A stretch of 60,831 nt of DNA, filler included, from Hausera hauseri (lineage: Eukaryota): assembly GCA_046269625.1 (NCBI GenBank). It is 10 parts of 10 records of this genome, joined end to end, with 100 filler letters (N's around TTAATTAATTAA, not from the genome) between each part and the next. Parts side by side here need not be neighbours in the genome. Positions count along the whole stretch, not along the records: positions 33,332 to 38,512 come from JBJURY010314830.1; 9 more parts are not named here. One strand, given 5' to 3'. This document shows positions 10,315 through 58,914 of this stretch, in pieces. The first letter of the stretch is position 1. The number at the start of each line of letters is the position of its first letter. The notes beneath the pieces are model-generated. The model made no database searches. It was not told the DNA's origin and worked only from the letters and a program-made list of their open reading frames with translations. The position numbers were made by a program, and so were the translations under genes.

Positions 10315-10413
10315 GAAATTCTACATTCGCGTAGCAAATGGTTCGAATAAACAATATCTCGTCAAGTGGCACGGATACACTGCACCGAGTTGGATTTTTG
10401 CATCACAGATTTA

Positions 10414-11472: not shown

Positions 11473-11511
11473 TAAAAAAACTGCATAATTATCATTGACA
11501 TCATTGCGAAT

Positions 11512-20687: not shown

Positions 20688-21909
20688 TTATACAACGACG
20701 GTTCCGTTTTTCGTTATTTCAACCGTGACATCAAATACACTGTAAATGTACATCACGGTAGGTTGCTCCAACGCTTTAGCAAAGTAAACCGCCAGTCGTA
20801 GGTTTCCCTGCTGAGGTAGTTGAATCTGTTCAACGTCATAATTCGGAGCCAGGACAAAGGTAAAGAATGGATAGGTGTACTTGAACAAATCCATCGATAT
20901 GTCATTGTAGATATTGTTGTTCAGCAAACCCATGTTGCGCACGATAGATTGCATATATGTGAAAACATAATCATTAGACTCAAAGTATTGTTTGTAGGTC
21001 TCAACGAAATCCGCATTCCGACCCAAACTGATGTTATTCACATTTCTATGGGCAAACGTTTTCGAATCGATGGTATAACTTCCCGTTTGTTGAATAGTGG
21101 TTTGGAATGTAATAAGCACAAATTTAGGCCATCGCATGTCGCCAAACAGGGCATCTTTGTAAAACGTAGTTGAAACTTTCGGTATGGTGTAAAAGACGAG
21201 TTCTGTGCGTTGTATCGGTTAACAGGCATTTTGTGTTTCCAAATCCAATTAATGTCCCATGAGCACATATGGTTCTACCTTTACTTGACGTACGTATAAT
21301 CGTGCTTCAGTAATATTTAGTATGGGTTTGAGATTTGCAACGGTGGTTTTCAAACAAAAGACATTGTCGCTGCGTTTGAGCCGAATCATGGTTTAACACC
21401 AAACAGTAGGTATTTCGGCTAATCGAAAAAGTCAAAGAACAGGGGTCCATACATGGTAAGTGTTTTTGATTCTGCCACCCATGCCTGACGGTTTGCTGCA
21501 GTGACGTCATATCCGATGGTTTTTGTCAAATGAGTCGTTTTCATCTCAGTACTGTAATTCAGAGCCGTTTCAATGAGTGCTTTGATACTGTCTAGACTGG
21601 TGTTGCCTGCGATTTTGCCGCTGTTTAGAGTCAGTGAAACCTCCTGGAACAGTGTGAGGAAAAGGTAATTGGCCAGTGCGACAGTGTCTGTTGCAGCGAG
21701 AACCGCTGATGCATCCTTTTTAACAATAACTTATACATAGAAAAGTGTATCGTTGAAATCCAGGTATTCATTGTCCGATGCCATAATGTTGAATTGAATA
21801 TCAGTGTTATCAAATCAACGGGGTAAATTTCTTCAAATGCCGCATTATCAATAACAACTTATGGTGCGCCTTTTTCAAATATACACCATTCAGATTTTGC
21901 AGATGCCAT
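20688..21909 (-). pseudogene. Polinton major capsid protein (double jelly-roll)
   Basis: FEEIYPV, IEFNIMASDNEYLDFND, LFQEVSLTLN, WPKFVLITF, QGNLRLAVYFAKAL...VEITKNG. Several frameshifts. Confidence 0.85.
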
Positions 21910-22716: not shown

Positions 22717-23229
22717 GTCTGATATCTCAGATACTTCAGCAACCGTGAAATCCTTCCTTACGCTTCTATGGCATTGTTCACGAACCAAAAATGTTTCGAG
22801 TTTCATCGGTTTTAATGATTTTATTCGATCAACTGAGTTGACAGAAAGAATCCCCATCGAATTATGTTTGGCTGCATGGATCGAAAAATTTGCATATGAC
22901 ATGTCGCCCTTATCTTTAACTGATTGAATTGAGTTCGAGAATTCTTTACATGTAACATATTTTTGTGGAAATAAAGGGTATAAATATTTCAAAAATGAGT
23001 CAACACATGGATCAAGAAAAATATCGGAGAACTGCTCGTAAAAATTGGGGCCAACTGATTCATTTGGTCCCTGAGAAATTATACAACTATTGGAATTTGT
23101 GGTAGGATTTTGAATTTGATTTGTTTCATCTTCAATGTTATTGCTATTAGAAGGAAATGAAAGATCCTTATTTTTTTGAGTGAACGCTGTTTTCATCCGA
23201 ATAAAATTTTGTAGTCGATGCATTGTCAT
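22717..23229 (-). CDS. Unknown ORF, truncated by the contig end
   Basis: Open for ~170 codons and overlaps the 3' end of the 1030-aa ORF in another frame. Confidence 0.35.
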
Positions 23230-26200
23230 CTACATAAATCATGAAAGGACTGCCAAAAACATTAACTCCATCAAATGTAATACACAAATTCAGCTTTGGA
23301 GTAGAATGCGGAATTAAGGAATAAATTCTTCTATTTTTTGAATCATTTAATATTTCCACCGGAACAGTTAAACCAGACTTATCATAACACTGGGTAACTA
23401 GTAAATTTGTGTGACCATAGCTGTGTGTTACATCAACTGTAAACATGTACGTATGACCAACTTTTAAAATTTCTTTGCTCAATGCAGGACCAAAAACTTT
23501 GATCTTATTGGATTTATGGTCTGTGGTACGACTTACAACGTCAATCATAAATGGGGAATTCAGTATGTCTTCGTTTTCAAACAGAATATGTATGGCATAT
23601 TCACCAACAGTTTGTGGACAGTATGACACTGTAGCGGAACCGTCACCATTGTCTTTGCATTCTATTTGTGAAAGAGAAATGAAAATAGATCTTCGAGCAA
23701 AAGTAATAAACATCTGTCGATCTGGTTGTTCATTATTTAAATTGATAATACGACACTTGATGTTTCCAAATCGGGGTAGACTTTTGAATTTTAGTAAAAA
23801 TTGTCGCCGACATTTTATTTCATTCATATAATCATCTGTATCATTCGCATGAGCATTAATCATTGTAACCAATTTAGGTCTTTTTGACGTAGATACCTTT
23901 GAATTTAAAATTGCAGTCGGAAGGGCCATCTTAAGTGCTTCTTTGGTTAATTTCCCTTCATAACCCTGTCCTCTAAGACAATAACATGCCAATGTCGTAA
24001 TTTTATCCATGTCGTCCATTGAGGAATTAATATCATCATCAAGCAGCCATTCTCCAAAAATCATCTCCTCCGAAAGCTGGTAGAATAATAAATTAATGAA
24101 TTCATCATTCCTTTTATCTACGTTCAACGGACATATCCAAGTAATACGTTTAAAATAAAAGTTATAACGTGATTGTTTTTGCTTCTGCAATAAATTAACA
24201 TGCTCATGAATGTAGTCTTGAGATTTAAGATAGCCGGAAAATATTGATTTGATTTGCTGTTTGCCATTCGGAACAGCCAAAAGTCCGTATTCCAAAATTT
24301 CTTTTTCATCAATTATTCCAGCTACTTTGCAGATCATGGCAATAACGTCACCAACTGTTGAGGTAAATGTTGTCTCAACTGACTTTGATCCTTTTGATAG
24401 CAAAATATTCAATTGTTTTACATAAGCTTCATTCAATAATTGTTGAATTTCCTCTTTTTTCGGGAATTCCTTCCGTAGGCCAAATTTTAAAAATAGTTTA
24501 AAATTTTTGATCACGATGTTTGCCAAATCTTGTTCAGGATTCAAAGGATTTTTTGCTACTTGTTTTAGGTGATATTCAAAATATGGCTGCATTCGTTTGC
24601 TAATTCCAACAAAAACAACAATAATCGATAAAAAGTTCCACAACATTTGACGAATCATATTATTAGGATTACCATTAATTTGTTTAAATACTTGCAAAAT
24701 GCCTTCATCTGAAAGCTCCCGATTTTGTAACAATTTTTTTAGTACATTGATCGCGTAATCAGCTGCTTTGCCACTACCACTGGGTTCGGCTTGGCTGCAC
24801 ATCATTAAAATTTCTTTGTGTTTAAAATACAACTGAACAAAATCAATAAGATTTTTATCCACAATTTTGTTTTCTGGTTCTTTGAGTGTCTTTCTGTCTT
24901 TCTCCAGTACAGTTTTAACTGGTATTCGTTCCTTATTTGCTCCATAAATGGAAACATTCAAATCACCACTGATAAGATTACTCTTTTTTAAGAGATCATT
25001 TTTACGACGCTTTCTATCCGGAATCAGTGGAATGCTTCCATCAATTTTATCTAGGTTCAGGATACCTCCAATAGTATCATTTTCTTTTTGCCCTTGAAAT
25101 TCTTGAATAAGCGAATAAATAGAATAGGCGTATTGTGTAATTATTTTGTATTTTGTTGATTTCGATTTAATTATGAGTTTTGTCTGATTACTATAAACGT
25201 CTGGATTTTCACAGTTCATTGAAATTATTGAATCAAATGGTATATGAGATACAATACTAATACGCGATTTTGGATTTGTAAAATTTTGTTCAACAAGCCG
25301 TACTCCGGTATGCGATACGGCGAGCCAAAAGCATCCATTGTATTCAGTTTTTGACGAATGCAACTTAATAGCATAAAATCTTGAAAAATACAATTCACAT
25401 TTTTGAGCTTCATCAATCACTTTAAGCATTAAGGATTTCGGAGCATTCAATGGTACTTTAGGATCTCTTACATTGCCGTATTCACCCAACAATGCGATTA
25501 ATCTTTTCTTTTCGTTTCCCATCCAACGGTTACACGGAAACTCCAAGAGATCTCGAACAATCTGACAAAAAATAACCGAGTTCAGTAAAGCGTTATCGTG
25601 AACTTCGCCAGGAAGAAAAATTTCTCTTTTAAGCATTGGAAACCACGATGAATTTGTATATGAAATATATCTTAAATCCGGTAGTCCCGATAAAATTATT
25701 GCCTTTTTGTCGGACACGAAACGCTTTTTCTTTGGAGGCTGTTCTAGAGATGTTTCTATAGATTTAGAACCCAATGATATAGAAGCATCTAATTCGTCAA
25801 GAAAAGGTTGATAGGATTGTAAAGATAAAACATTTTCATTTTTCACATTTTTAGAGTCTTTTCTAGCACGTTGCACGATCTTCGGCTTAGTTAAAATGGA
25901 ATGTTTTGCAAGTTTTCTCGGTGAATATATATTTAATGTATCAATGGAATCATTTTCATCATGTTCTATTCGTGCGGTTTCGTTCTTTGTATAAGACAGG
26001 CGTGGTCGTGGAATAATAGATTCTTGTCGTTTAAGCGAAATTGATGGCATTCGATCAAATTTGTAGGGTTTTGATTGAACATGATCGATTGGTGGCGACG
26101 GAGTTTTCTTTACAGGTTCTGGAGCCATTGGTAAACCTTTCTTTTTCTTAAAAAAATATTCAAGAAATAATGCCCGATTTGCAACGTCTACTTTTGGCAC

Positions 26201-26260
26201 TTCGCTAGGTCGAAGATTTCTTTTCTTCATTTTTAAAAGTTGGTAGTATTTTTGAATCAT
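23168..26260 (-). CDS. Myosin-XV-like tail (FERM-like/MyTH4/FERM) fused to ~1.5 filamin Ig repeats
   Basis: KREIFLPGE...FCQIVRD, LAVSHTGVRL, MyTH4 ELSDEGILQVFKQINGNPN, FERM FKRITW...LLFYQ...LPRFG, then filamin CKDNGDGSATVSYCP..GEYAIHI...SPF. Confidence 0.8.
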   Translation of the reverse strand: MIQKYYQLLKMKKRNLRPSEVPKVDVANRALFLEYFFKKKKGLPMAPEPVKKTPSPPIDHVQSKPYKFDRMPSISLKRQESIIPRPRLSYTKNETARIEHDENDSIDTLNIYSPRKLAKHSILTKPKIVQRARKDSKNVKNENVLSLQSYQPFLDELDASISLGSKSIETSLEQPPKKKRFVSDKKAIILSGLPDLRYISYTNSSWFPMLKREIFLPGEVHDNALLNSVIFCQIVRDLLEFPCNRWMGNEKKRLIALLGEYGNVRDPKVPLNAPKSLMLKVIDEAQKCELYFSRFYAIKLHSSKTEYNGCFWLAVSHTGVRLVEQNFTNPKSRISIVSHIPFDSIISMNCENPDVYSNQTKLIIKSKSTKYKIITQYAYSIYSLIQEFQGQKENDTIGGILNLDKIDGSIPLIPDRKRRKNDLLKKSNLISGDLNVSIYGANKERIPVKTVLEKDRKTLKEPENKIVDKNLIDFVQLYFKHKEILMMCSQAEPSGSGKAADYAINVLKKLLQNRELSDEGILQVFKQINGNPNNMIRQMLWNFLSIIVVFVGISKRMQPYFEYHLKQVAKNPLNPEQDLANIVIKNFKLFLKFGLRKEFPKKEEIQQLLNEAYVKQLNILLSKGSKSVETTFTSTVGDVIAMICKVAGIIDEKEILEYGLLAVPNGKQQIKSIFSGYLKSQDYIHEHVNLLQKQKQSRYNFYFKRITWICPLNVDKRNDEFINLLFYQLSEEMIFGEWLLDDDINSSMDDMDKITTLACYCLRGQGYEGKLTKEALKMALPTAILNSKVSTSKRPKLVTMINAHANDTDDYMNEIKCRRQFLLKFKSLPRFGNIKCRIINLNNEQPDRQMFITFARRSIFISLSQIECKDNGDGSATVSYCPQTVGEYAIHILFENEDILNSPFMIDVVSRTTDHKSNKIKVFGPALSKEILKVGHTYMFTVDVTHSYGHTNLLVTQCYDKSGLTVPVEILNDSKNRRIYSLIPHSTPKLNLCITFDGVNVFGSPFMIYVDDNASTTKFYSDENSVHSKK

Positions 26261-27573: not shown

Positions 27574-28579
27574 NNNNNNNNNNCGGTTGTTGTTAACTGA
27601 TAATAGTTAATTGACAAATAATTATAAGCATAATGCCATCGGTTTATATAAAAGCTCAACCGGAAAACGCATTCAAAGTGGTTTGTAAAATGTATAAAAC
27701 AAGTATAGAAGACTTTTCATGTTGTGCAGGTCTAGAAATAATTTTTGTACACTCGCCAAGACCATTCAGAGAGACGCCGACAGATCGTGCAAATGGTACG
27801 GATTTCCAGACGAAACAACNNNNNNNNNNNNNNNNNNNNNNNNNNNNNNNNNNNNNNNNNNNNTTAATTAATTAANNNNNNNNNNNNNNNNNNNNNNNNN
27901 NNNNNNNNNNNNNNNNNNNTTACTGATTGTCTATTTTCCCACTGCATGTTTCATTTTTGAGCCGTTTAATTTTAGCTTCTAAATTTGTTTTGTAATTCTA
28001 AGTACATAAATAATTTCGGATAACAGATTTAAAATCATACCATTTGTCGTACTATTCCTTGAAACAACGCTATGCGATTTTCAAAGCCCATATTTATTCC
28101 CAAACACCAAAATTAAAATAAAAATTTTCTGACACAAACCGACCAATCAGATTGCACCAAGGGTGGGTGGGAATAGTGAAACCCAATCTGCACCAGAAAA
28201 TGCTTTGTTTAAAATTTAAACAATTTTTTTACGCGCCAAATTCAAATTTATACACGTATCTAAAAACCATACAGTACGCGTACTTGTGTATATCCACTTT
28301 GTGACTGTGTGTCTCCTATCTCCGCCCTATTAACCGTGTATGTGTGTATCGTTTTATCTACCCAATGACGCATCTGAGAACCACTTTTTTCCTTCCTTCC
28401 ATGGGGGGGAGGGCAATGTCCTCACTTCCTCCTACTTCCCGGTTTAACAGCACAGCAACCAATCCATTGGCAATGTTCATTGACTGCTGAAACTGCACAT
28501 TACTCATGTATGTGACCAACCGCTTTTCGCTATTGCATAGGCGTACATTGAGCCGCTTTTTTAGATTCTGCACTGTTTT

Positions 28580-31290
28580 CTTTACAGGGAATTGTTTTCA
28601 GCTTGTAGTAGTCCTTTTCGAACTTTGTCCAAGCTGCGGCTCGTTTCTCCGAATTTCCATCTATGTACGCCTTGAATATGGGAGCCTGACCAAATCGTAT
28701 TGCACGATGCAGCTGTGTGAGGCGTACACCCAACTGTAGCCGAAGCCAATTGACCACGTAATTGAGCTTCGGTTCATGCGTCATGAGCAGTTTCTTCACT
28801 TTTGAGCATGGCGGATATTGGTTAAATGGTGCGACCGGTAAATCGTCTAAAACGTCATGCAGCTCATCTGGTACCACGAGATCAACCTTTATCAGGTATC
28901 CAAATGAGTTTGCCATGTATGCTGTGGTAGGTTGATTATTATGTCGTCCAGGTCTTGTCTGTCGACTACCCATTTGAATGAACTGTACGGTAGGGGTTGC
29001 AAAAGCGCCCAGCCATACAGGTTATTAATATAAATATACAGCAGTGATGTGGTATCGGCGGTAGCACTGACCTGATGCTTGTTGACAAATATTATGCCTC
29101 CGCGAATAACAACATCAAACAGCCGGCACATTTCCGGGTCTTGCAACAGCTCAATGCTTCGATCCAGTGACATTAGAGATGACACTGGTATAGAATAAAA
29201 GTTGAGTGGCTCCAGCCTATCTTCAGTCAACGCTTTTGCTCGAAACGCCTGGAACACATCGGCTAACAGGTACACATCCTGTTTAAGATACTGAAGCATG
29301 TACTCCAAGAGGTTTCTACAGCCCATCTCTGCCTAAAACAATCGTGCTTTGTGATAATCTTCTTCTGTGATACCGAGTCATTGCGGTGGTAATTTGTCTG
29401 TCGTCTGAAGCCGCTCGTACGATATTACAAAGTCATACGGGAATATGCCTTTGCATCGTACAATATGCGTGGGGAACTGAGTCAAAGTTAGCGGCACATC
29501 CGGCAAGGCATTCACCAGCTTTGCCAGAGATTTATTGAGAAATTGTAATGAATCAAGGAAGCGTACCTGGAACCAGTTTATACGAGCAGACAGTGACAGG
29601 TATTTCAAAACCGTAGTCGGAATGATGAATAGTTTTCAGTGCGGATATCCGTTTATGGCCCATTTCAAAATATGGTGACAGTCATAAACTCGGAAATTAT
29701 GAAAGACCACCTGTTGGGATGGCCGTATGCTCCTTGCCAGATTGCATGAATTACATGCAGCGCCTAAGTATTGACCGGTCAAATGATCGTGATCCGATAC
29801 GAGCCGTTCTTGTGCATCAAACGGCAATATTTTGTGGTAGAGGTAGCATTCATCAATGGCGGCAAACATCAATGGTTCGTATTCGTCTGTCGATATCAGT
29901 GGCTTAGTGGAATTATTGAGATACCACGGCGCAATTTCCGTTTCTACTATTATTTCCAACAGATGTCGGAAATCACGTACACAGTTCCAACCGTGAAACG
30001 CATAATACTGTGGTTGACCAGTGGCTTTTATCGGAACAACCAGTACACCGACGGCGATTGGTATGTGTTTTTGGTCGTAGATGCTGTGCCGCGGTAGAAT
30101 TGCCTCGATGTCGGCATATGCTACATATGCCGGACTGTCCGTTTTTTACCAGTCAGTGCATCTTAGCTCCTTTCTGACGGGCCTGAGATACATTGTTGTT
30201 CCTGAGGCATTCTGTCTGCAGAGCACCACATGCTATTCACATTTTGCTTCTGATCTGAATCCATACAAACATAGCAGACACCCTTTAAATCTTATTTGTT
30301 TCTGGATGAACAGGTCATGCGCCATATTCAGCAGTATGTCAAGATTTGTCACTGCTACGTAATGAAATCGATCGTTCTGTTCCAACAGCAACAAATTCAC
30401 TGGGCGTCCATTCGGGTTTCGACTGCGATGGATGATGTTCTGATGGTTTTTTTTTAAATGTCTTCATCTGCCGGTATTTCCAGTATTGTGTTGTACCGGA
30501 AAACGTTGAATGACAGCGTCGGATTACGCCGTTCAAATGCCGGATGGATTTCAATTTCATTGGCATCCTTCTTTCATCATAGTACAATTCGGAGAAATAC
30601 TGCCGATACAGATTTGGACGACTGGCATTGTATCTGGCCACTTCATCATATTTCAATATGGCGAAAATACTGTAAAGAATGCAGTATTTATCGTTCGTAT
30701 TTTGCACATTTACTACCGTACAAGACTGTTGTAAAGCTGTAGGTGTCGGTATGAATGATCGGCCGGATAAATAAATGACATCACTAGACTTTGTTATAAT
30801 AAAGCCTAGTGTGACAATTTTCATATTTCGCCATCCACTACCCTTTTCCGTTTAGTTGGCGATTTTCTCATCAAGCTTTTCGCCAATGTCCCGAATAAAA
30901 TCTTCTGAATAAGGTACAGCTTGATGTGACAGGTACCATCGTTTCCTGTTGCCCTATACATTTTCGAATTCTGCAAGTGCGTAATATTTCACTTTGCAGT
31001 ATTTGAATTTCCGCACTTCAGCTTGCAATCGGTTTCGCACACTAGACGGGACATGACTCATTTGCGTTGTTGTGTTCGCGGACATGTCCACCTTCATGTC
31101 CACGTACGATTTGTTTAGATAGTAATTCACGGTAATGGGAAAATTGACTTCCTGTTCCTGCTGTTCCTGTTGCTTCTTTTCATCCTTATCTGTACTGCTT
31201 CGAATTAATTCGCCAAGGCTTGTGCAGGCCTGGAGTCTTCTGCTGCTTGTTGATAGGATGTTGTTGTTGTTGCTTTTTATTGCGTCTATG
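28580..31290 (-). pseudogene. Polinton protein-primed DNA polymerase B, degenerate and 3'-truncated
   Basis: GRSFIPTP...VVNVQN, DHDHLTGQYLGAACNSCNL, FHNFRVYDCH, FLDSLQFL, KGIFPYDF, YLKQDVYLLADVF, IRGG, NNLYGWA..QPLPY, FEKDYYKL. Confidence 0.93.
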
Positions 31291-31872
31291 AGTATCTGTA
31301 TTTTTGATCGCTTAAACTGGTACAATTGGTCCTTGTGCTGAATATACAATTGTTCATAGTTGATTTGATAATCAACTATAGAGCAGCCGGAACAAACACA
31401 AGCCCGTTTACTGTGTACCGTTGTGGTAGTACCATAGTATTGCTCCATTGCAGTATGGCAACCAGCAACGTTGTGCACTCTACTAGTACAGTAACGTTGG
31501 TATGTGGGGCAGTGCGCAAGCATCATCTTCTTGGACCACGTAAACGGCCCGAGATGATGCCTTGTGCATCTCGTAAAATTCAGCATAAGGGCACTGAGTT
31601 TGAACGTTGCACGTTAGACACAAATATGTCGTCCGTGCCAACGCCGTAATACTTCTCCATCTGCTGATAACACTGGTATTCATCTTCGTACATGAGTGAT
31701 ACTCAATAAAGGAGGTATTGCACACATTTCTAAATAAAATAAATTAACATTTGTTATAGATTAACTTCATAAATAAAACAAATTAAAATAAGTGTAAAAT
31801 GCATTATATATTAATACTTCAAATTAAACTAAATTGCTACTTCTACGTCGATGGTGATGGTGGTGGTGGTCT

Positions 31873-32178
31873 ATGAGTGAATATAAATATTGGTCACCAC
31901 AAGTAAAACAGATGGAAGCGTATATAGAAAGTGAAATTCGGAGATTGACCGACGGCATTTTGACCGTACATGTGTTTGACGTACAGTATCTATGTGAGCT
32001 GTCGGAAAAGGGAATAATGAGCAGGATAGAGTACATTGAATTATTAGTCCGGTCTCTTTTCGCGAAACGCATAGAAGACAAAATGAAACAAAAGCAACGA
32101 CGGATTAAACTTTTCATCGGACTCATATTCTCCGTTTCATTTTGTATTGTAATGAAAAAGTTGATTGGCCGTATTTAA
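31873..32178 (+). CDS. Small Polinton-associated ORF with a C-terminal hydrophobic anchor
   Basis: ATG-initiated, 101 aa, ending LFIGLIFSVSFCIVM; divergent from pPolB. Confidence 0.45.
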   Translation: MSEYKYWSPQVKQMEAYIESEIRRLTDGILTVHVFDVQYLCELSEKGIMSRIEYIELLVRSLFAKRIEDKMKQKQRRIKLFIGLIFSVSFCIVMKKLIGRI

Positions 32179-32309
32179 CCACACATTTGTATTATATTTG
32201 AATATACTTTTTTATGTATTTGTTTTATGCATTAATGTAATGTATTGCACGTTTTCGCTACATTGCAGTAGTATAAATACGTTTGTTGCGTTATCCAGGA
32301 GATTACAAC

Positions 32310-32796
32310 ATGTCTTACTTGACTCAACTCATTGCTCAGGAGTCACCTTTACAATCTCGATAGACCTTTAGATAATGATGTTTGGTACTCGTCGCCTGAA
32401 AATATACTCTTGCGTGCAGAGGCAAATTGGAGGGCACGTGACCCCTATGTACGCCATATGAACCATATTAATGGTGATATGAATGCATTATTCGGCACAA
32501 TTTTCCATATGTATCAGAAATTGGCGGATGGCTATGGGTTGTGCGATAATAAGCGTTAAATACGCTTTCTAGATGATTTCATACAACGTGATGAACTTTT
32601 TCCAATGTGGCAGTCAGCGAAGGAGATTTTCTTGAAGCAGCATTGCAACGTGATTACTTCCCATGGTCTTGATCATTCGCCTATCGAATTGGCTAATGCA
32701 TGTTTTCTATGTAATCCGATTATATTTGAACTACTGAGTTGCAGTGTTGGTGATTTTATATTACAAGAAGAAGACGACGACGAAGAAGAAATATAA
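32310..32796 (+). pseudogene. Small Polinton-associated ORF with an acidic tail, disrupted
   Basis: ORFs 32332..32559 and 32605..32796 are in one frame across a single TAA; CxxC and EEDDDEEE at the end. Confidence 0.4.
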
Positions 32797-32849
32797 TAAA
32801 CGTTTAATGCAGACGTTGTTTTTTACTACTAAACAAGACTGTTAAAATG

Positions 32850-33095
32850 AGGTAGGTGGGGAAATAGTGATGTCCGAAAACTACGTCAGGAAAAAATTAT
32901 TGTTATAGTCAGATAGGTGAGGAAATGCGGTTGACCGGAACTGGGTCACATGAAAATATTTCAAATGTAGTCAGATAGATGGCTAAATTTAGTTGTTCGG
33001 AACTGGGTCACAGGAAAAATTTTCCTACCCAACTCACCTTTCTGAGTCCAAATATACAGGTGTCCGAAACTAGGTCAGTTTAAAAATTTTTCCGA
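32850..33095. repeat. Degenerate ~62-bp tandem repeat, ~4 units
   Basis: Units of the form AGTCAGATAGGTG.GGAAAT...GTCCGAAAACTAGGTCA. The reverse complement occurs at 54816-54950. Confidence 0.75.
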
Positions 33096-33331
33096 CTCAA
33101 CCCATTGCACCAATAATGAAATAAAAGAAAATCATAAAATGAGACAAAACAAAACATAAATAGATGAAATAAATTAAATTTGAAGTAAAATTAATAAATT
33201 AAATAAAATGATAAATAAAAGACCAAAAATTNNNNNNNNNNNNNNNNNNNNNNNNNNNNNNNNNNNNNNNNNNNNTTAATTAATTAANNNNNNNNNNNNN
33301 NNNNNNNNNNNNNNNNNNNNNNNNNNNNNNN

Positions 33332-34380
33332 TTCGCAGGACACATGCCTGGAAGAAAACGTTAGAAAGAATATTGAATAAATATTTTTGGCCCAGCATTT
33401 ATATTGATGTAAAGAATTTGGTGAATGCTTGTGAAGTATGGGCGATTAAACAAAGGAAAACAAATAATTACATGCCCGAATTAAAACCAATAAGTGTGCC
33501 CTATAGGCCTATGCAAGTCATGTCAATGGATATAGTAGGACCGCTACATACAACTCATAAGAGTGATAAATATATTTTAACTTGTATTGACCGACTAACT
33601 GATTTTGTTGAGTTGATAGCGTTAATTGATATAAAGGCAGAAACCTTGGCAGAAGCTGTAGTAAGAAGAATCATTGGTCAATATGGACCTCCAGACCAAA
33701 TATTAACCGATCGAGGAAAAAATTTTACCAGTGAACTATTCGAGAAGATTAGCAAAATATTTTAAATCGAATGGTTAACTACAACCGCGTATCATCCTCA
33801 ATGTAATGGAATGGTTGAACAAATGAATGCAACTGTAATTCGCATACTATCAACAGTAGTAGCTAAGGACCAAAAAAATTGGGACGAATTTTTAGAATGG
33901 ACTGAATTTGCAATTAATACCACCCCTCATCCGGCGACAGAATTTACCACATTTTTCATAATGTATGAACGTGAGGCTGTGTTACCACAGACTTAGGAAT
34001 GACATCATACACAGTCAGTCCCGAAAATCTAGAACAAAACTTTGCAGAAGTATTACAGACGCGACTAGAAAAATGTTGGGAAATCGCCAAGGAATTACCC
34101 CAAGAATATCAAGAACAGTTTAAAAACAATATGATAAGAAAGCGAAACCACATGAATTAGAACAAGGAACCTGCGTTTATGTACATTATGCAGTAGCCAA
34201 GAAAGGCGCATTATTAAAACTGACTCGTATAGGCAGAGGTACGTACGAAGTTACTGGAGTTACTCCAACTACGGTGTACATAAAAACGAATGGAAAGGAA
34301 GAAGTCGTGTCAGTACAAAGAGTTGTTAAGACGGAGATACGGCCCAATAAACGTTATAATTTACGTAAACGCGAGATAAA
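33332..34380 (+). pseudogene. Gypsy integrase (element A)
   Basis: SMDIVGPL, LTDRGKNFTS, AYHPQCNGMVE, RYNLRKR. Confidence 0.92.
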
Positions 34381-35817
34381 AACTTCTTCAATAATTGCTA
34401 GACCGATATCATACATTCAGATAGTTTTAGCGCTATCATTAATTGCTTCCTACATCCCAAGAACACAAACCCAAGGGTGGGACGATGAAATTACGCTAGG
34501 AGACATATATGGAATTCGGAAGAGCGGACTAAAAGCGAAAAATACCATAGCGGAAAAGAAACCAAAGGCCCAAGAGATCCAGATGTGAGAAGACACTGTT
34601 TTGTTACAATCGATGAAGGTCATTATTTTTCACCAGACTCTCTGTGTTTGGGATTTAAAACTTTGAAACTGCATCAAGATTTTGGAAGATTTCAATTTTT
34701 CGTATACAATATAACAACAAAAGAATCGAAAAACTGTGATTTTGAACCCTAAGATTATACACAATGCTGCGACATAGATTTTGGATACATTTATATTCTT
34801 ACTTATCGACTATACTTACCAGAGTCATCAGACGTCTACATCGAAGTAAATTAACAACTTCAGTTAGTTATTCCCATTTGGATCAAACGATTCAAAGTGA
34901 AACCAGGTGAAATGCTACAATCTACCGACACAAACATAAGGTTATTAGATTAAAATATCAAAGGGATCTCAATAAATAAGGAAAAACAATGCATCCAAGT
35001 AGATGCTCAAATAGGATTAAACTTTAGTCAAGAAATTAGTACTGTTTTCGAAGCAGTAAACAGAAAAATCCCAAGAATAAATTACTGTTCTGTTCATGCC
35101 GGTGTGCCACACCCATTTTGCAAGCTACCAGTAAACCAAGAATTCAAAATAAAATTTGATCTATATTAAGTACGACCGAATAAACCGAACTAACATTTGC
35201 GAACCTATTACCCAGAGAATAGAATATGGAAGAATCCAGTAGAAACAACAACCGAAAAGCCGACTATTTGAGTTAGTGCCACTACAAGACCCGTTACATT
35301 AAGCAGTGTGCTTAAAAAAGAATTAGGAAGTATACCTGTTAAATTTTCGGCGCATCGATCTAAAATTGTGTTCTTTTTAGAAGAAAAACTAAATTACGAT
35401 ATACACATAAGCTGCCGAACAACGTATAATAATCAAATTGTAACATTATTTAAAAACACTTATCAGACAGAATGCAATCTGTTAAAACCACAATCTTATT
35501 ACATAGTACAAGTATATGCAGAGAATAAACAAAACCAAACACTTACATTGCGTACCTTGGACGAAATTCGCGCAGAGTTGCATATATACGAAAATATCGA
35601 CGACGAAGTCACAACACCAGTCACCACACAAGCACCAATAGGATTAACTACTTTACCAATCGTTTCCATTGTCGTACTATCAACGTTTATTCTCATTATA
35701 TTAATTGTCATTTTTCGGTTAGTTGCCAAAAATTATCATTGTAAGCGTCCTAAAAATACAGAATGGGAATTACGGGAATTGGAAACCCCCACTGATCCGT
35801 ATGATGAAATAATCTGA
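34381..35817 (+). pseudogene. Env-like type I membrane protein (signal peptide, ectodomain, FN3-like domain, Thr-rich stalk, TM, YxxI tail)
   Basis: IQIVLALSLIASY is in frame with the integrase end; CNLLKPQSYYIVQVYA; TM IVSIVVLSTFILIILIVIF; tail ends PYDEII. Internal stops and frameshifts. Confidence 0.7.
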
Positions 35818-35915
35818 CAAATACAGAGCGGGTTATTCTATTACCTAACAAAGAATTGGTTTCATTTTAAGACCATCCTTTGTTGTAATATTAACCCTTA
35901 CTGTTTATTTTTTAG

Positions 35916-38312
35916 ACTGATAAGTAAAGAGAGAATTATAAAAACGGATACCGGACAACCTAGGATCGACGGACCACGTTTTATCCGAGAATTAGAATCA
36001 CCAAAACGCCGAATTAGTATCGACGAGTTCCTGCAGAATTACGCTACCGTTTTCGTTCCAAATTCCAAATTCATATATCGAGAAATTTATAACGAACTGC
36101 ATGAGAAAACTTATGTGAAGTATGATCAGAGCAGTAAAATTCCTAACAATTTAAAGGGTATAACGGAGGAAAATAGGATTGTCTACCTTTACGCCATGAG
36201 AGAAGATAAGGATGCTCGAGCATATTCACTCAAACGAATAATCACGTATGAAAACCGTCAAATTATTTACATCCACCTAGCAGATGGAGAAATATATTAT
36301 CGATTCAAAGATCAAGAATGGAACACAAACAACGGAAGGCAATACAGATTTAGTATCCTTAGCTTACGTAGCGAAGATTTACAGCATTACGAATTAGAAT
36401 TCCGAGTAGCCGCCCTTCCCGTAAATATAATGTTCGAGGTAACGTACGACGATTACCCCTTTGTCAAACTGCCACCTTTGAAATTTCATAATCAACCGTC
36501 AGAAAAGGACTCTGGCACATTCTCACAATCTCATAGACTAGTGCAAGACGCCAGAAATACGAGAATCATAACAATCAATTGCGGAGAAGGGGATGAAGCG
36601 AAGAAAAATCCAATGTAAGTTTCAAGTCGAGAAACGAACGGAACAAAAGTATATTGTGCAATTATTAGCCCGAGAAAATGTGTTTGTGAGACATACTACG
36701 ATACGACAAGAATTCGCAAGGAAACACTCACAAGAGGTAGAGAGATCAAACTTGTCCAAGCTGAATTGAAACAATGTTTTTACGGATATATCCTAGCTGA
36801 ATATCGCATCGATAGAATTGTCGAACTCTTGGCGATACCGTGCTCAAGCATCGTAGGAATGCGTGAGATAGGAACAGACCCAGTAGTCGCCGAAAAAAGT
36901 AAACGAATATTGCGAGAAAGGAATTACCCTATGCCAAAAATTATGGACGCCTATTTCAAATTAATGGTTGACGCGATGAACAGCGAACATGTAAGATTAA
37001 CAAACTGTTAACCTCAAGTCAACGTACTCAATACTTGCGAGATATTTATGTAGCTTTAAAATTGGACCATGAGTGGACACCCAGTAATCCAGAACAAAAT
37101 TTACGAAGTACATCCGACCCGGAAACCATAAACAAAAAGTATCGTAAGCAGTATCGTTTGTATTCCCCGTGTAGAATCGTGGAACCCATGGGGCAGGATA
37201 ATATCAAAATAACTTCGGAAATGAGATAAATCGTGTACCGACGTGCCCAGCACCAGTTATGGTTCCCACATCAAACCAATTCCAGAAATGAAATCTAAAA
37301 TCAAGGAAATAGAAGCAATTGACACATTCAAAGTACCCAAAATTCCACCAAAAAGCTGAAAGCTGGAACACAAATTTCCCCGATTAAAAGAAAATTATCC
37401 CTCTATGATTACTTGTTCAGAAAGAAAAATAAAGGAACAAACTCAAACCAAGCTCAAGAGGACCGAACCGATGAAACGAACTAAGAACCCGAAATTTCAG
37501 AGATAGCAAGAGAAATCCCTACAACATCCGCAAATGACCAAATGACAATCCCAGAAAAACCCAAGAGAAAAACATACAAGTACAAAAACCTAGAGAGCGG
37601 ATTTCAACAACTGTTCAGGAAAGCAAATATCCTAAGAAAAAGGATTTCCCAAGAAGATATACACTTCGCAACAACTAAGGATTACCCGAAGATGCTAATA
37701 ACCAGCGAGTATTATAGTCACCAGAAAATTAAAGAAGCAATGTTTTTCGTGAAGACCACACCAGCTCGAGAAGTATACAAAAACACCTACATTTGGGAAA
37801 ATCCTAAGATAGGAAGGTATATTGCGCCAGTTTTCCAATCGAAAAGAAACGGCAAGTTAACAGTGCTAGTAGATAAACAAATGAAAGCTTTGCTGAAAAA
37901 ACAGCATCAGAAGTATCAAACGGATGGCGAAATTTCCGACTTAGATCGAGATACCATCGCCGATTGGATCTTAGTACCAGTAGGTTGTGACCCTAGAAAG
38001 AGTTCTGTAAACCCCAAACAAAAGAGAATCCATGGTTACCTATATCAAGATAAAGACGGTCTCATATTCGAACCCATAGAGCTCACAATAAGAGTAAATT
38101 TAGACGACGAGAAATGGGATAAAAAGGAAAACGAATGCCCAGTATGTGAAACAAATCTTAGTGAAAAATATGTTGTTTTGGATAATCGTGATTTTAGACA
38201 CAAATATTGCCGAGATTGCTTGGAAAAATGGACCCTAGATAATGGCAAAACCACCTACCCGGTGTGCAGAGCTGAAGCAACTGAACCGAAATACTTTTCG
38301 AACGGTAGTTAG
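35916..38312 (+). pseudogene. Accessory ORF3 of element A: N domain, dead DEDDh-like fold, conserved C domain, RING variant
   Basis: One frame runs from a polypyrimidine-AG (35914-5) through 36115..36618 and 36766..37011. It aligns with ORF 56301..58100. CPVC...HKYCRDCLEKW...YPVCR at the end. Confidence 0.7.
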
Positions 38313-38612
38313 ACCCGTGTAGTTCGAATAAAACCCCATTGCAGTTATGAATTGGAAATACGGACTCAGAAGTGAGCTTACGTAGACGAATAAATCTCCT
38401 AAGACAACCACGTTATGACGTCACCTCTCCTGACGCAATGGGCACTTACGAGGATGCCGCTCAGGGAGGGGAAATGTTGTAAAGACGTCCAATATTGAGA
38501 AGACGTCCAAAANNNNNNNNNNNNNNNNNNNNNNNNNNNNNNNNNNNNNNNNNNNNTTAATTAATTAANNNNNNNNNNNNNNNNNNNNNNNNNNNNNNNN
38601 NNNNNNNNNNNN

Positions 38613-40900
38613 TCTTGGAATGTACCCGGTGCTGCTGCTATTCCAAAAGGCATTCTGTTGAAACAAAATTGTCCCCGTTTAGTCGAAAAGGCTGTTTTCA
38701 ACTTAGATTCTTCCTCTAGTTCGACCTGGTAGTATGCGTTTCTCAGATGGATTGACGTAAAATATCTAGCCCGATATAGTTTATCCATCATTTCCATGAT
38801 ATTCGGCATGAATATGCTTGCCTTTATGTGACGAGTTTCAACTGTCTAAAGTCTAGACAAATTCTGACATCGTTTTTCTCTTTCTTCCAGACGCATATCA
38901 TCGGAGTATTCCAAGGTGATTTACATTTCTTGATTATATTGTTTTCCTATAAGTTTTGGATGGTCTCATCGATTTTAGTTTCTAAATCCACTGGTTGTCT
39001 ATGCGGTTTGATGTTAATTGGTGCATTTTTTGTGTCTATTCTATGCTTTACCAATGTTGTACAGTCGATATCCCACTTGTCAGCCACGAAAACGTCTTTG
39101 TTCTTTCGTACTATGTCCAATACGACTGAGTTTTTGTTTTTCCATAGAATCTCCTTCGCTCTTTTGAATCGTTCTTTATTCGTCACTTTTCGGCCAAATT
39201 TTCCTTCTACGTTACGTATATTATACCTTTGTTCTTCTCCATCTTTCTGTCCCCAACCTAATTCGATTTCAAAAGTATTTTGTAGTTCCATTCCTTCAAT
39301 TATTTCTGGTGATATGTCTGTCACTACTCTGAAAGTTACGCACTTTTGTACACTCTTGAGTTCCGCATTTACGGACAGTTCACCCATCCAGCCTAGGGGT
39401 CTACCATTTGCACAACGGAGCGCAATATCTGATTTCTCCAGCTGAACATCTATCAGACTTTCAAAAATCTTCCTACTCATTACGTTTACCCGTGCCACTG
39501 TGTCCAATAGGCAGTTTTCCCATCTACCCTGTATCTTTATTTTTATACCTGGCCGTCCTTGTAGTTTATCGTACGTGATCTGCTTTTGCGACAGTCCTGG
39601 AAAAAAATCCACTCTTCATGGAGGCTCTTGTTTTGACTTTCTGTAATTCGTACTTCTTCATTTCTGTCTCCAAACGTTCCCTCCTTTATGAACCGCCGTA
39701 ACTATTCCTCTCTTCTTTCCTTCATTTCTTCAATACCTTGTCTATTCCTTTCAATATTTTGGAAGCCTTTGGAGTTGTTTAATGTAATGCCCGACAAGCT
39801 CCACTTCTGTCGAGGCTCTGCCTTTTGGAGTTGTCGACTCTATGATGGATTCTTTATAGTCTTCATCAATATTTGCAACATATGCGTACCTGCTGTTTAT
39901 CCTCTCTACATATCTTTTCTGACCATACCACGCAGGTTTGAAATTGTCTGTATACGTATTTTGTCCTCCTCTGATCTTGTCCAATTTGTATAACATTCTT
40001 CTTCCCTGTGCACTTTATTGTGACACCTATTGAATTTTATGTTTATGAAATTTCGCTTTATGTGTCCTTGTTTCCGGCAGTTCCCGTCAATGTGCCCTTC
40101 TTTTCTGCAACCAAACATCTTGGTACTTGTTGGAAGTTGCATGTCCTGCTTTCATGCTGTCCTTCTAGCACGACCAGCATTTCATCCTTTTCTTTATATG
40201 CGTATTTTGTGATTTGAAATCCCTCCTTTCTTGTCTTGGTTTATCAAGTTTCTGCATTGCCACATCCCGATAACTCCGTCAACCCTCTCTAGTGTATTCT
40301 TTGACTGTGTCTATTTCTTGCATCTTCTTTGCAACTTTGTGAACTTTCTGTATTTTCAATTTGATTTGTTCTAAGTTTTTTTCGTCACCGCGGTAGATTT
40401 CCTTTCTCGTCTCCGGATCGTCACAACAGTGGATCACAATTCCTTTGTTAGAGCTTCCAGTGTTACTTTCTGGCTAAATATGCTTTTAGCCAGTTATTCA
40501 ATTTTGCTGAAGTAGGCGGCCAGTTCTACCACCTCATTCTGTAGTCCAAGGCCTCCTGCAGATCTCCACACAGTGCTGTCGGTTTTGAGAAGGCTTTTCT
40601 CAACCGGTTTTGGTATCCTTTCACTTTCTGGCTCACCAGATTGTATTTCTCCTGTGCTTCTTCCGCCAAAAGGCACAGGACCGCGGTTTCCCGGTCCGTC
40701 TCCGACATCTTTGTGAAGTCGAAGTATCTCTCGCATTTTCGAATAAAGTTTTCCACGTTGTCACACATTTGGAATTCTTTGACATCAATTTCTTCTCGAA
40801 AAATTCTCTTGAAGCGTTGGTCGCTGTGTTAGTAGATCGCGTTTCTACCATCCCGACTTCAATGTCACTTGATGATTGTAAAATACAATTATCCATAAAT
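38613..40900 (-). mobile_element. Degenerate Ty3/Gypsy gag-PR-RT 5' half
   Basis: Gag MVETRS...VENFIRKCERYF, zinc knuckles GCRKEGHIDGNC, protease LLDTVARVNV, RT HLRNAYYQVEL...MPFGIAAAPGTFQ. Probable LTR boundary at 40877. Confidence 0.92.
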
Positions 40901-41671
40901 GATTTATTATAAAAGTTTTATACAACATTTATCTCCTTCATTCAGGAAATGAGTCTTATTTTCCTTCTTTTCTGAATTTCCTGACTTTCTGTTCGCTGTT
41001 TACTGAATTATCTTTGAATTAAAACATTTTTATTTCAGCATTAATATCCGTTTCAATTCCTCCTCACAAGTAATATGTATAGAAGGAAAATTTAGATATA
41101 TTAGTAGTAGAATGTGAGCGATCTAGGACAAGCCCTCTTGTGTAATAAATCACCTGTTCGATTAAACCATTACTTTTAACGATGCAGCTGTTCCGGTTAC
41201 ATACTATCTTATAACGACATACCTGTTTCGGATAACGGATGCACCTGTTGCGCTTACGCAACACTTTCTCGTAAACTTGTTCCGCTCACACACATGCTTG
41301 TTCATGTCCTTACTCATTCGCTTACTCACAATCAACTGCTCAATATGGAAATTTGTTTATATGTTTTGTATATCTCGATTTTCCTCTATATTTCTAGAAC
41401 AACCCCCACGTCGCAATTATATAGTTCTTGCACATACTAGCTGTAATTATTATCAATATTCATTATTATTATTATTAATTAATTATTATTTAAAACATAT
41501 TTTAGTAATTGTATATTATTATTTTAATTATATTTTTGCACTTATTATCAATATTTAGTAATATTTTTCGGAATAATTATTAATTATTAATATTATTTTA
41601 GTAATATTTTGTATTATTTTAGTACTACTTACGGAATTTTTACTCCTTCAACCTAAATATTAACTGCACAA

Positions 41672-50111: not shown

Positions 50112-51459
50112 AGAGTTCTGTAACAAGGACAGGGAGGGAGTCATGAATGCACAGAGCACACTCAGTGGGCAAAGTCATGTGAGCTGTGCATTTGGGAATG
50201 AGTCCAAACAGCTGATCTTGTCACAAACATCATTTAGAGAGCTGTCACTTTGAGAAATTAAACTCGTGGTGTCATATGTCTGACAGTGTTTNNNNNNNNN
50301 NNNNNNNNNNNNNNNNNNNNNNNNNNNNNNNNNNNTTAATTAATTAANNNNNNNNNNNNNNNNNNNNNNNNNNNNNNNNNNNNNNNNNNNNTATAAAAAA
50401 GTCCAGCCAAATCCAAAAGTATTATTCAGAAGATACGGCAAAAGTTTCAGAAACTCCGGTGCAAAATTCAAAAGACCGGGAATTATCACCAAAAATGTTT
50501 ATTCGCGATATTCCCAACATTATAACCCAGGAATTGATAATACGTGACTCTATGTTTCTGGATGTGAAATGGGGCTCTATTTACCTTTACCCCAGTTACC
50601 CCACGAATAAGATACCCTTCGGAAGAAACAGCTGTCCATTCTATTCTACTTTTCAAAAGTCCCCCTTGCCGATGATGGATGATAATGTTGGGAGGAATGA
50701 GGTTGTGTTTGGGGGCCAACCGGCTATCCCAACAATTGCGAGTAATGAAATAGTACTGTTCGAATTTATTACGATACAAGCTAAGTTCAATACAGCAGAT
50801 ATAGAATCATAGTACAGATCAGCCACATTTTCTTCCAAAATTAAGAATGTAAATCTTTCGGATCCAAAAATATACTAGCAAATTCGAAAATTTCCTTTTA
50901 GTCATACTTGAATCTCCGTTCAAATAAGTCACTTAGAATATTTTATCGTGGTTAATTGCCTCAATCCTTATATACTGGTCTCATTTTACTCCCACCCACG
51001 TTGATGAATTTCTGTCAAACCAGAATTCACCCAAATGGATTCTTCGTGGGCGTTATCTAATTTATGACATTTTCGTTGAAGCCGCCATTGATGTCATTTG
51101 TGGACTGAATCATTTAAAATTTCTAATTCTAATTTCCTGTTTTTCTGATTTAGAAAATATTTCAATTTTTGTTTTAATGGGATTAATAATTCTAATTTCG
51201 GTTTTTTAGATACAGCATTTTATTTACATTGCCTGTACAATTTTCTACTCAATTTCTATCTTTTACAACATTTCCCTGAACGGCACTATCGTGTGTGCCC
51301 TTTGCGTCAGAAGAGGTACCGCCTTTATTGGAGCGGCTTAGTAGATTTAGTCATCTGCTTAAGTCTGCTTCAGAATCTGATTCATTACCTTGAGAACGTA
51401 TCTCTAAATGGTAATCCGTATTGGGTCTCCGAGGGAATATCTCTACTGTCCTGTTACTT

Positions 51460-52376
51460 TCCCCATTGGAGAAATTTCGTAGTTTCGTGGATTCAGCGCG
51501 ACATACTGGATAGGTCGTTTTCCTGTTTTACAGGGTCCTCGATTGCAGACAATATCGACAATATTTAGGAGTGAAATCCGTTGTTTAATACTACGAATTT
51601 TTAGTAAATATTAGCCGCATATTGGGCATCCTGCGTCTTCGGCGGCGTCTATATCTACTCCGTCATCTAATTCAATTCGCTCAAACACTAGTCCTTTTTG
51701 ATCTAAATACAGATACCAAACAATTCTTTCTGAGCTGGATGGAAGAAATTTTTTCTCGGGTCGCCGGATACGGAAATTAGCGTCCATTCCATTAACTCAT
51801 CCTTATCCAAATCTGGAATACCAATCTTTTTGCACTGTTGCTTTAGATGTATCCGAACGTGGATATCTACCAGAACAGTCAATTTCCCGGTTCCTATCTT
51901 TGAACTGAACACTGGAGTTAAGTATTTCTCTAATTCTGAGTTTTTCCCAGCATATGCATTTTCATACACGCTTCTTTTGGAATCAGTAGAAACAGAACAT
52001 GGCCTCCTTGATTTTGCCTTTACTGTAGTTTTCGGTCATGATTAAAATCCTGGAGGATTCTTTGATTTGGCCAAATTCCATTACTATTATGGGAACGTGT
52101 TCCTCTGCTGTTTTCCTTAGATCATCTACTTCCGACATCCTGGCTTTTCTAGTTTCTCCTTCTTTAACCGTCCTTCATAGCGGAAGATTTTTCTTCTTTA
52201 TTCAGCGGTTTCTTTGGTTTTTTGTCGTTTCGGTTTTTTCTGGGATTCGTTGTTTCTTTTTGGTTTTTGATCCCGGTTTTGTCTCGCTTTGTTTGGTTGA
52301 CTGATAGAATATTGTTCGGTTGATCTGCCTTTTGTGGGCTGTCATTGGCCCTATTCTTCTTTGTCCTTATACGCAA
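51460..52376 (-). pseudogene. ORF3 C domain plus RING variant of a third related Gypsy element (C)
   Basis: PVFSSK..GKLTVLVD...DLDKD...DPRK, CPICG, KYCRYCL...TTYPVCRAE match 37542..38312. Confidence 0.8.
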
Positions 52377-54950: not shown

Positions 54951-55589
54951 CACACCCGTTTGCAAGCAGAGATATTCGGGATTTTGTGTATAATATCGAA
55001 AAATCGATATATCTCTGGAACGAATAAAGATAATTTAATGCAATTTAATGTGTATGAATGGAATTAATTCCTCTACTGTCCTGTTACTTTCCCCATTGGA
55101 GAAATTTCGTAGTTTCGTGGATTCAGCGCGACATACTGGATAGGTCGNNNNNNNNNNNNNNNNNNNNNNNNNNNNNNNNNNNNNNNNNNNNTTAATTAAT
55201 TAANNNNNNNNNNNNNNNNNNNNNNNNNNNNNNNNNNNNNNNNNNNNGCATTGGTTGATTTTTATTGGTTTGTGAATGGTTGTTATTTGCTTGTGTGCAT
55301 TTCTGGTTTTTTGTATGTATGTTTCTTTTAGTTTTTGTGTGTGTATATATTTTAAAACTTTTAAGGTTAACCATCCACTCCACATTTCTATCCACAATTG
55401 GGGCAAATAACAAAGCCGTTGTTATTAACAAGTTTTTACTAACTACATATTTTATCTTATTCAAAAATATTTAAATTTTTAATAATTTAGTTTATTTTAT
55501 CAATTGATTATTTTTAGTCAATTGTTTTCTAAAATGTTTAATTTCAATAATCTTTTTAATATAAAAGCATCTTTGTTCCCTAACACATT

Positions 55590-56093
55590 TGTTAAAAAAG
55601 AGAAATTTAAATACATTTCTACCATAGAAAATTTGTAATGTTTTTCTTGAGTCAAATTGTCACTATTACAGAATAATTCAAATTGTGAGCATTAACAAAA
55701 ATTTAAAAACAGTAATCGATACAGTCGTGTGTGTACGCTTGTTTAATGGCAGAATTACTCATACGATACTGATTGCGGAGTTTTTTTTAATTTTCAACTA
55801 CAGTAACAATTACGAATGATAATCAATGGCGTCTACAACAGTAACTGCTATGCACTTAGTCACCTTAAGTTTTGATGATATGGACTATTAGAAATATTTG
55901 AAATTTGCAAAATCTTTCAATTGTAAAGCAATTTTTCGAATTATGAAGTAGCATTTTAAAATGTTTCACTTTTAGCTAATTATGGTTATTGCATAATGTT
56001 CAAAGTTGTGTGTTCAATTAGGTTCTAACGTTCTAACTTTTCATCTGATTCTCTGGCTCTATTAAAGATGAAAAACATATCTGTTCCCTAACA
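55590..56093 (-). mobile_element. 3' LTR of element B (504 bp)
   Basis: TGTTA...TAACA termini. On the minus strand it is preceded by a PPT (A, G-run, AAGA) at 56094-56107. Confidence 0.75.
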
Positions 56094-56300
56094 TCTTCCC
56101 CCCCCCTGTAATGAAATTTTTCTTAAAAATTTAAATATTTATTATCATTTAAACATTCAATAACGAATAGAAGATATGATAAAAAAAATTTTTACAGTAA
56201 TAAACATAGATAAAAAATAAAGTACATAAAATATAAGATAGACAGATATAGAAATACACATAAAAGGAAAGTTATTAAATCACAGCAAGTTTGTTATTTG

Positions 56301-58391: not shown

Positions 58392-58914
58392 CTGTAAAAG
58401 AAAAAATAATGATAGCGGGTCGTTTTTAATGGCCCGTTTGCAAGGTAGGTTGTTACCTTGCATTGGTTGATTTTTATTGGTTTGTGAATGGTTGTTATTT
58501 GCTTGTGTGCATTTCTGGTTTTTTGTATGTATGTTTCTTTTAGTTTTTGTGTGTGTATATATTTTAAAACTTTTAAGGTTAACCATCCACTCCACATTTC
58601 TATCCACAATTGGGGCAAATAACAAAGCCGTTGTTATTAACAAGTTTTTATTAACTATATTTTCATTTTCGAAATTTTGTAAGGATTTTAATTGTTTTTG
58701 AATTTGTTTCCTTTCTATAATCCATTTTTTTAATTCGATAATCATAAATGGTATAGATATTGTTATTAGGAGTACAGTTATTACTGTAAATGGGATTATA
58801 GTTTTTAATGTAGTGATATGAATATTTGGTATTATTGTGGTCACTTTTAAGGTATATTGTTGTATTTCTAATGGAATCAGATGTTTTTGTGTTTTGGTTG
58901 GTGTTCTGACTGTC
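58308..58914 (-). CDS. C-terminal stalk/TM/tail of the element B env-like protein (frameshifted)
   Basis: KTVRTPT...TIIPFTVITVLLITISIPFMIIELKK continues the 626-aa ORF after a 1-nt shift near 58920. Confidence 0.65.

Follow-up and report, generated by a model that had tools for sequence, protein, structure and literature searches.

The window analysed here (60,831 nucleotides of Hausera hauseri DNA, assembly GCA_046269625.1) consists of pieces of about 5 kb strung together with N spacers. Two of these pieces are each filled by a decayed LTR element, and the two elements, A and B, are related (Table 1). Their 5' halves are outside the window, since both pieces end inside the integrase (the piece of A begins within it). 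The integrases combine the H2C2 zinc finger and the rve core of Ty3/gypsy elements: A exceeds both Pfam cut-offs, and the rve core of B reaches 31.6 bits (cut-off, 32.6). As in Ty3/gypsy elements, a polypurine tract is followed by TG, the likely start of the 3' LTR, in both, and the long relatives listed are RT/RNase H/integrase polyproteins (27-39% identity). The two integrases are 46% identical over 208 aa and form one clade (SH-aLRT 99), to which none of the four Pol proteins fused to a fusogen belongs, in a quick tree of 114 rows (11 of the 125 proteins were left out, having no usable integrase row or being the query).

Table 1. Features of elements A and B (positions along the window)
Feature	Position	Strand	Basis or remark
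Element A	33333-38512	+	fills whole piece
A integrase, zinc-binding and core domains, broken	33334-33987	+	Pfam rve E 2.7e-12, Integrase_H2C2 E 1.2e-07
A integrase C-terminal domain	34124-34396	+	ends YNLR (34355-34366); open into signal peptide
A predicted signal peptide	34397-34471	+	by eye and hydropathy; same frame as YNLR, no stop between
A ectodomain repeat 1, four cysteines, one stop	34645-34848	+	after frame change; aligns with P0124 repeat 1
A ectodomain repeat 2 (homologue of repeat 1), with three stops	34933-35217	+	hhalign and P0124 alignment
A ectodomain stops	34750, 34852, 34951, 35167, 35191, 35269	+	
A membrane-proximal FN3-like domain	35320-35562	+	model and structure searches
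A transmembrane (TM) helix, behind Thr-rich stalk	35659-35715	+	hydropathy 3.49; model helix 128-158
A tail Y-x-x-I motif and stop codon	35800-35817	+	tail ends YDEII
A accessory ORF, degenerate DnaQ/DEDD-like domain, one stop	35818-37011	+	profile matches
A accessory ORF ending in RING finger	37485-38312	+	Pfam zf-C3HC4 E 0.0008, below cut-off
A polypurine tract then TG, likely 3' LTR start	38463-38512	+	cut by contig end
Element B	55248-60831	-	fills whole piece
B open frame: integrase, YSLR, signal peptide, ectodomain, most of FN3-like domain	58915-60831	-	638 aa
B YSLR	59808-59797	-	
B hydrophobic signal-peptide-like stretch	59760-59704	-	hydropathy
B FN3-like domain, most of it	59133-58918	-	inside open frame
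B stalk, TM (about 58796-58737) and tail, other frame	58308-58919	-	hydropathy
B accessory gene, degenerate DnaQ/DEDD-like domain	56301-58391 (or 56301-58247)	-	profile matches
B polypurine tract then TG, likely 3' LTR start	56092-56107	-	

A and B belong to a multicopy family: at an identity of at least 80%, run X1, which may be the source sample and whose depth is not a copy number, gave 9204 contig records on A and 3031 on B, with 30 of 30 bins covered in each.

Between the integrase and the 3' LTR, each element carries an env-like gene followed by an accessory gene with a degenerate DnaQ/DEDD-like domain. The accessory genes are 21% identical over 228 aa (E 3e-6); as a two-sequence profile they hit the exonuclease domain of PolC (E 0.00095) as well as ISG20L2 (E 0.0055), and the gene matches dnaQ at E 0.0019. 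By eye, the first motif of the domain looks degenerate, without clear acidic residues. The accessory gene is probably spliced, since the best acceptor-like site in each element sits just behind the env-like gene, before 35916 in A and before 58391 in B (rank 1 of 352 and 1 of 259 on a home-made score, equalled or exceeded in 40 of 982 and 41 of 902 windows). Because this gene and the polypurine tract with its TG are common to A and B, the env-like gene is placed inside both elements.

A third, decayed copy of the RING ORF, 43-67% identical to that of A and followed by a purine run and TG, lies at 51250-52150 (-), and its last 82 bases recur at a contig end (55066-55147). In B, 204 bases of the region behind the TM segment (58460-58663) are repeated at 99% at 55248-55451, beyond the polypurine tract on the same piece, which could reflect a tandem copy, an LTR-internal duplication or a scaffolding overlap. 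Two other decayed gypsy-like elements are present at 2028-5850 (+) and 38613-41400 (-), and in the tree the integrase of the former is placed at a long distance from those of A and B. Decayed pieces at 27920-33231 (-), 20688-21218 (-) and 6200-11500 (+) resemble Polinton/Maverick-type elements by eye: they include an endonuclease VII match (E 6e-06), fragments that we take to be polymerase-, ATPase-, integrase- and capsid-like, and 62- and 68-base tandem repeats near contig ends. The window also contains an open frame of 1030 codons that encodes MyTH4 and filamin domains and shows no apparent intron (23168-26260, -), as well as kringle genes; these genes mark the source as an animal.

An intact relative and the layout of the ectodomain

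A search of 1.84 billion representative proteins returned three sequences at E <=0.001. P0123 is partial (189 aa, 45% identity, E 5.6e-32), and P0124 is an intact protein of 479 aa (33% identity in the search, E 3.7e-19). The third, P0125, was rejected as a spurious match: the alignment covers 36 residues of a bacterial repeat adhesin, whose FN3-like stretch yielded nothing when used as a probe. Further searches with the C-terminal ORF of A among longer proteins (0 of 891) and with the B ectodomain among proteins of near length (0 of 262 candidates) were negative. P0124 had no match among PDB sequences, the three-sequence profile retrieved nothing from the PDB beyond two TM-only rows, and NCBIfam held nothing relevant for the env-like proteins. 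As to the DNA context of relatives, no viral contig and no prokaryote genome was found; the metagenomes yielded three distant integrase loci, and the one examined is an ordinary gag-pol with a stop after the integrase tail and no FN3-like gene.

P0124 shows the order of parts that is broken in A: a signal peptide with a charged linker behind it, then a pair of repeats with four cysteines each, a Thr-rich linker and the FN3-like domain, and finally the stalk, TM segment and tail. Its ectodomain spans about 390 aa and holds four N-glycosylation sequons, and the whole protein has only two hydrophobic peaks. Besides the signal-peptide region (55% identity to P0124 residues 10-62, 55 columns), A and P0124 are 31% identical over 356 columns. 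Repeat 1 of A aligns with that of P0124 with a score of 85, reached in none of 1000 shuffles. The tail of P0124 ends YDRIT, and the tyrosine and isoleucine of the tail are conserved in A, P0123 and P0124. Just 3' of the signal peptide, contig cover falls sharply in both runs (34544-34716; depth cannot rank parts), and P0124 likewise aligns poorly there; this stretch is likely a hypervariable linker.

Repeats 1 and 2 are homologous to one another (hhalign, 72%, E 3.4e-05); neither aligns significantly with the FN3-like domain (hhalign E 0.14-0.43). All three modules of P0124 nevertheless end in C-x(1-2)-L-x(4-5)-Y-x-hydrophobic, a common ending which suggests that its ectodomain may be built of three FN3-like units.

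A and B align with each other in the membrane-proximal domain only (score 47, reached in 9 of 2000 shuffles), their N-terminal ectodomains giving no significant alignment (1936 of 2000 shuffles scored as high). The B domain also matches the A/P0123/P0124 profile (E 3.2e-06 in a one-sequence search) and, as judged from these alignments, is homologous to that of A; for the N-terminal ectodomain of B, no relation to any other sequence or structure was found. The earlier note had placed a shared I.I(S/T)C...C..L.P...Y.V motif ahead of the stalk and TM segment in both elements. A scan of all six frames of the window indeed gave two occurrences of I.I[ST]C...C..L.P...Y.V and no more, +35401 and -59055 (mean in 200 shuffles, 0.0), a count that speaks for specificity and is not independent support, because the motif was drawn from A and B themselves. 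The short L.P...Y.V alone occurs three times, against 0.96 expected.

The junction between integrase and signal peptide

It had been claimed that a signal-like stretch follows the integrase Y(N/S)LR motif without a stop in both elements, and that the protein is translated as part of Pol. The first claim was confirmed by reading the frames: neither A nor B has a stop of its own after the integrase. Integrase, signal peptide and ectodomain lie in a single open frame only in B, whose env-like part has no stop in 296 codons (37 and 24 in the other frames). About 260 residues of the B ectodomain are within this frame, and the frame changes near 58915, ahead of the last strand, the stalk and the TM segment. 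In A, a frame shift between about 34560 and 34640 separates the signal peptide from the ectodomain; the ectodomain frame has six stops in 408 codons (24 and 30 in the other frames), and its last 181 codons, which cover the FN3-like domain, the Thr-rich stalk, the TM helix and the tail, are open.

Since the junction is open (through the frame in B, at the junction itself in A), the genomic message of such copies, if intact, would yield a fusion of Pol with the membrane protein. In-frame Pol-Env polyproteins are present in other gypsy elements (P0025, P0030 and P0115). These three and P0094 are public gypsy polyproteins with a signal peptide and an envelope-like region in frame after the integrase, and three of the four match rhabdovirus G-, Monjiviricetes- or baculovirus F-type families.

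The claim of translation as part of Pol therefore stands as regards the reading frame of B and the open junction of A; as a claim about the main route it is only partly supported. Somewhat short of an even chance is the alternative that most of the protein is translated from a start codon of its own, with a spliced or subgenomic RNA as template, the open junction being incidental or a minor route. P0124 is called with a methionine at positions 1, 6 and 10, the third of them immediately preceding the conserved ARPISY with which the signal peptide starts, and its residues 1-9 do not align with the integrase tail of A. That P0124 begins at its own methionines leaves room for a separate or spliced message, although its start position is the choice of a gene caller. 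Acceptor-like AGs in the same codon phase lie just 5' of the hydrophobic core in both elements (rank 8 of 352 in A and 18 of 259 in B on the same home-made score), albeit weak ones: 73 of 1013 and 172 of 933 windows of the same length score as high. The third ORFs of LTR elements typically come from spliced messages, according to PMC5408684. Against a separate message, the junction is open in A and B although their integrases are only 46% identical. Between a Pol fusion and a separate message, the balance is near even. Note that the question concerns expression and that a separate message is compatible with every functional reading below.

The fold of the membrane-proximal domain

A single-sequence model of the last 181 residues of A shows seven strands (residues 23-92), a coil and the TM helix, at low confidence (mean pLDDT 53.6, pTM 0.32). 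A Foldseek comparison of this model gave a result dominated by FN3 proteins: the best ten matches are FN3 entries throughout, and 36 of the 40 matches listed are FN3 domains, monobody complexes or FN3-built receptors, as sorted by title. The probabilities are mostly 0.95-1.00, but the best E value is only 0.0035, with no match at E <=0.001. A VIA comparison with 48,161 chains ranked a fibronectin type III fragment best (Z 7.3, rmsd 2.7, 87 aligned), with other Ig-like sandwiches interleaved among the matches and no Z >=8. In ESM Atlas, FNDC9, IL-11R alpha and FNDC5 were found at 0.87-0.88, below 0.9, which makes them a lead only. The corresponding analysis of the B ectodomain was uninformative (pLDDT 34.5; best Foldseek E 0.2; best Atlas value 0.79).

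At the level of sequence, a two-sequence profile retrieved four rows from the PDB, of which three (E 0.27-1.1) belong to FN3 proteins. In FN3 domains, the E-F loop and F strand typically carry L-x-P...Y-x-V; this pattern is present here and is seen aligned to fibronectin in the profile comparison. Strand B of FN3 domains typically has a tryptophan, the position of which is occupied by a phenylalanine. The Pfam fn3 model gave at best 13 bits (P0123), against a gathering cut-off of 25, and no match for A, B or P0124.

The membrane-proximal domain is not a formal member of the FN3 family. The FN3-like domain announced in the earlier note is favoured by the topology of the model, by the structure searches and by the language-model neighbours, three weak and partly independent indications of which none passes a formal threshold. 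We consider it likely, though short of proof, that the domain is an FN3-like sandwich. As regards the further proposal of a captured adhesion- or receptor-like protein, no donor gene was found, and protein searches returned no sequence-level homolog among host FN3 proteins. The FN3 family expansion reported for a tapeworm in PMC8166898 is a donor lead only.

The role of the protein and known systems

As the earlier note had remarked, the furin site and fusion peptide of errantivirus F-type Env could not be recognized, and this extends to the intact P0124. R-x-[KR]-R is absent from the ectodomains of A and B, hydropathy shows no peak between signal peptide and TM segment in either, P0124 has no R-x-x-R before its TM segment, and none of the three combines a furin site with a hydrophobic fusion peptide. 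No Pfam match to Baculo_F or fusion glycoproteins was obtained (the positive control P0115 scored E 4e-29), nor to any fusogen family for A, B, P0123 and P0124 at E up to 1; class III or G-type families did not match the env-like proteins, whereas the controls P0025 and P0030 did match. Among the 50 BFVD matches and the PDB matches listed, no viral fusogen is named, but these concern the membrane-proximal domain only and exclude nothing. The intact P0124 supports the conclusion that the protein is not an F-type Env.

Domain III of class II fusogens, which is membrane-proximal, is Ig-like, and these fusogens require no furin-released hydrophobic peptide. The protein could accordingly be a fusogen itself, either a remote class II member or one of a new kind, as its env position and the beta-rich ectodomain of P0124 with its paired cysteines would allow. 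We deem this very unlikely: domains I and II of class II fusogens are interleaved, unlike the two tandem repeats with Thr-rich linkers, and the Pfam families that missed all four proteins did detect the true fusogens fused to Pol. Highly improbable, too, is a functionless passenger, that is, a stretch of host DNA caught up in the element. The two copies in the window are indeed broken, as a passenger might be, but the gene occupies an equivalent position in two elements that have diverged deeply, P0124 has its full 479 aa intact and shares cysteines, signal peptide and tail motif with A at 31% identity, and many diverged contig pieces cover the gene from end to end.

At the place where related elements have a viral gene for membrane fusion, A and B carry a protein that is likely borrowed and more likely to act in attachment or as a decoy than to drive fusion. 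Our preferred reading, to which we give about an even chance, is that the elements encode, directly after the integrase, a single-pass membrane protein, predicted to be FN3-like in its membrane-proximal part, that serves for attachment and is not fusogenic. The hydrophobic stretch would direct insertion into the ER, and host signal peptidase would cut the ectodomain free of the integrase (by eye, small residues occupy positions -3 and -1 of the signal peptide in A, B and P0124). A single FN3-like module, or perhaps three, would then be displayed at the surface on flexible Thr-rich linkers, with the tail Y-x-x-I as a putative sorting motif, and the protein would hold particles, or the cell that makes them, close to a target cell. 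Fusion might be supplied by a fusogen in the 5' half of the element or by another element, or might not be needed; flatworm GAG-ENV-POL elements are described as having their fusogen upstream of pol (section 5 of PMC13524379; PMC6431247).

A shared FN3 fold shows in itself no function, and the protein could instead manipulate the host, as a decoy cytokine receptor or in superinfection exclusion or immune modulation, without a role in entry; it would then form a set of such factors together with the RING protein and the pseudo-nuclease. The structure and feature neighbours include cytokine receptors (IL-2R beta, IL-7R alpha/TSLPR and IL-11R alpha), single-pass proteins of herpesviruses and poxviruses and the CD2-like protein of ASFV are among the viral matches (all at E >0.002), and the N-terminal ectodomain is wholly different between A and B. 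Generic FN3 matches are nevertheless uninformative on the ligand, and the WSXWS-type motif, a hallmark of cytokine receptors, is found in none of A, B and P0124. Giant planarian elements do bear many host-manipulating domains, as described in PMC6431247, but position and layout here are those of an env gene, and we regard host manipulation as rather unlikely. Distinctly unlikely is a third kind of retroelement envelope, whose sole surface protein would consist of FN3 modules of host type and be released from Pol by signal peptidase. It would carry the element from cell to cell through adhesion, or through a novel mode of fusion, with no fusogen of viral origin.

If attachment is indeed its function, elements of this type either keep binding and fusion apart, as paramyxo- and herpesviruses do, or pass from cell to cell without a fusogen, and both options bear on how retrotransposons became infectious. 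The role is directly testable because an intact natural version exists. In the literature covered, chiefly the main texts of open papers, no FN3-type cargo was found in any LTR element.

Env-carrying Ty3/gypsy errantiviruses are alike in having a signal peptide, ectodomain and TM gene 3' of the integrase in a multicopy gypsy-like element. The survey of such elements classes Env as F-type or gB-type (HSV/gB) only (PMC13524379), whereas no fusogen match was obtained here, and the tandem small repeats with an FN3-like domain (A/P0124 type) are unlike errantivirus Env. That survey used fusogen baits, which FN3-like cargo would escape, and 'fibronectin' does not occur in its main text (Chary and Hayashi). 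The OVEX1 paper uses fibronectin, where it appears in the text, just as a tissue marker (PMC2717909). Elements that have taken up a non-env ORF where env would lie are already known: Juno, Vesta and TelKA of bdelloid rotifers carry DEDDy exonucleases and TM proteins of unknown function; as described in PMC5408684, their TM ORFs are separate, 210-230 aa long and without a described FN3 domain, and their nucleases retain catalytic residues, while the first motif in A and B looks degenerate. An env within the polyprotein, in frame, is likewise known from the giant planarian Burro/GYPSM1 elements, together with RING and other accessory domains, but in Burro the env is fusogen-like and has gag on one side and pol on the other, unlike that of A and B (PMC6431247, in which 'fibronectin' has 0 occurrences). 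Env-independent spread is known from the MDG1 group, where, according to 10.1101/2025.03.14.642691, sORF2/FAST-like membrane proteins serve the cell-to-cell spread of an LTR element. However, sORF2 is a short fusogen-like peptide, whereas P0124 is a multi-domain protein of 479 aa with a predicted cleavable signal peptide and is not a short TM peptide without a large ectodomain. Finally, host FNDC5, FNDC9, cytokine receptors and receptor phosphatases share with the element protein an FN3-like domain, a stalk, one TM segment and a short tail, from which it differs by two conserved cysteines and by phenylalanine in place of the usual tryptophan.
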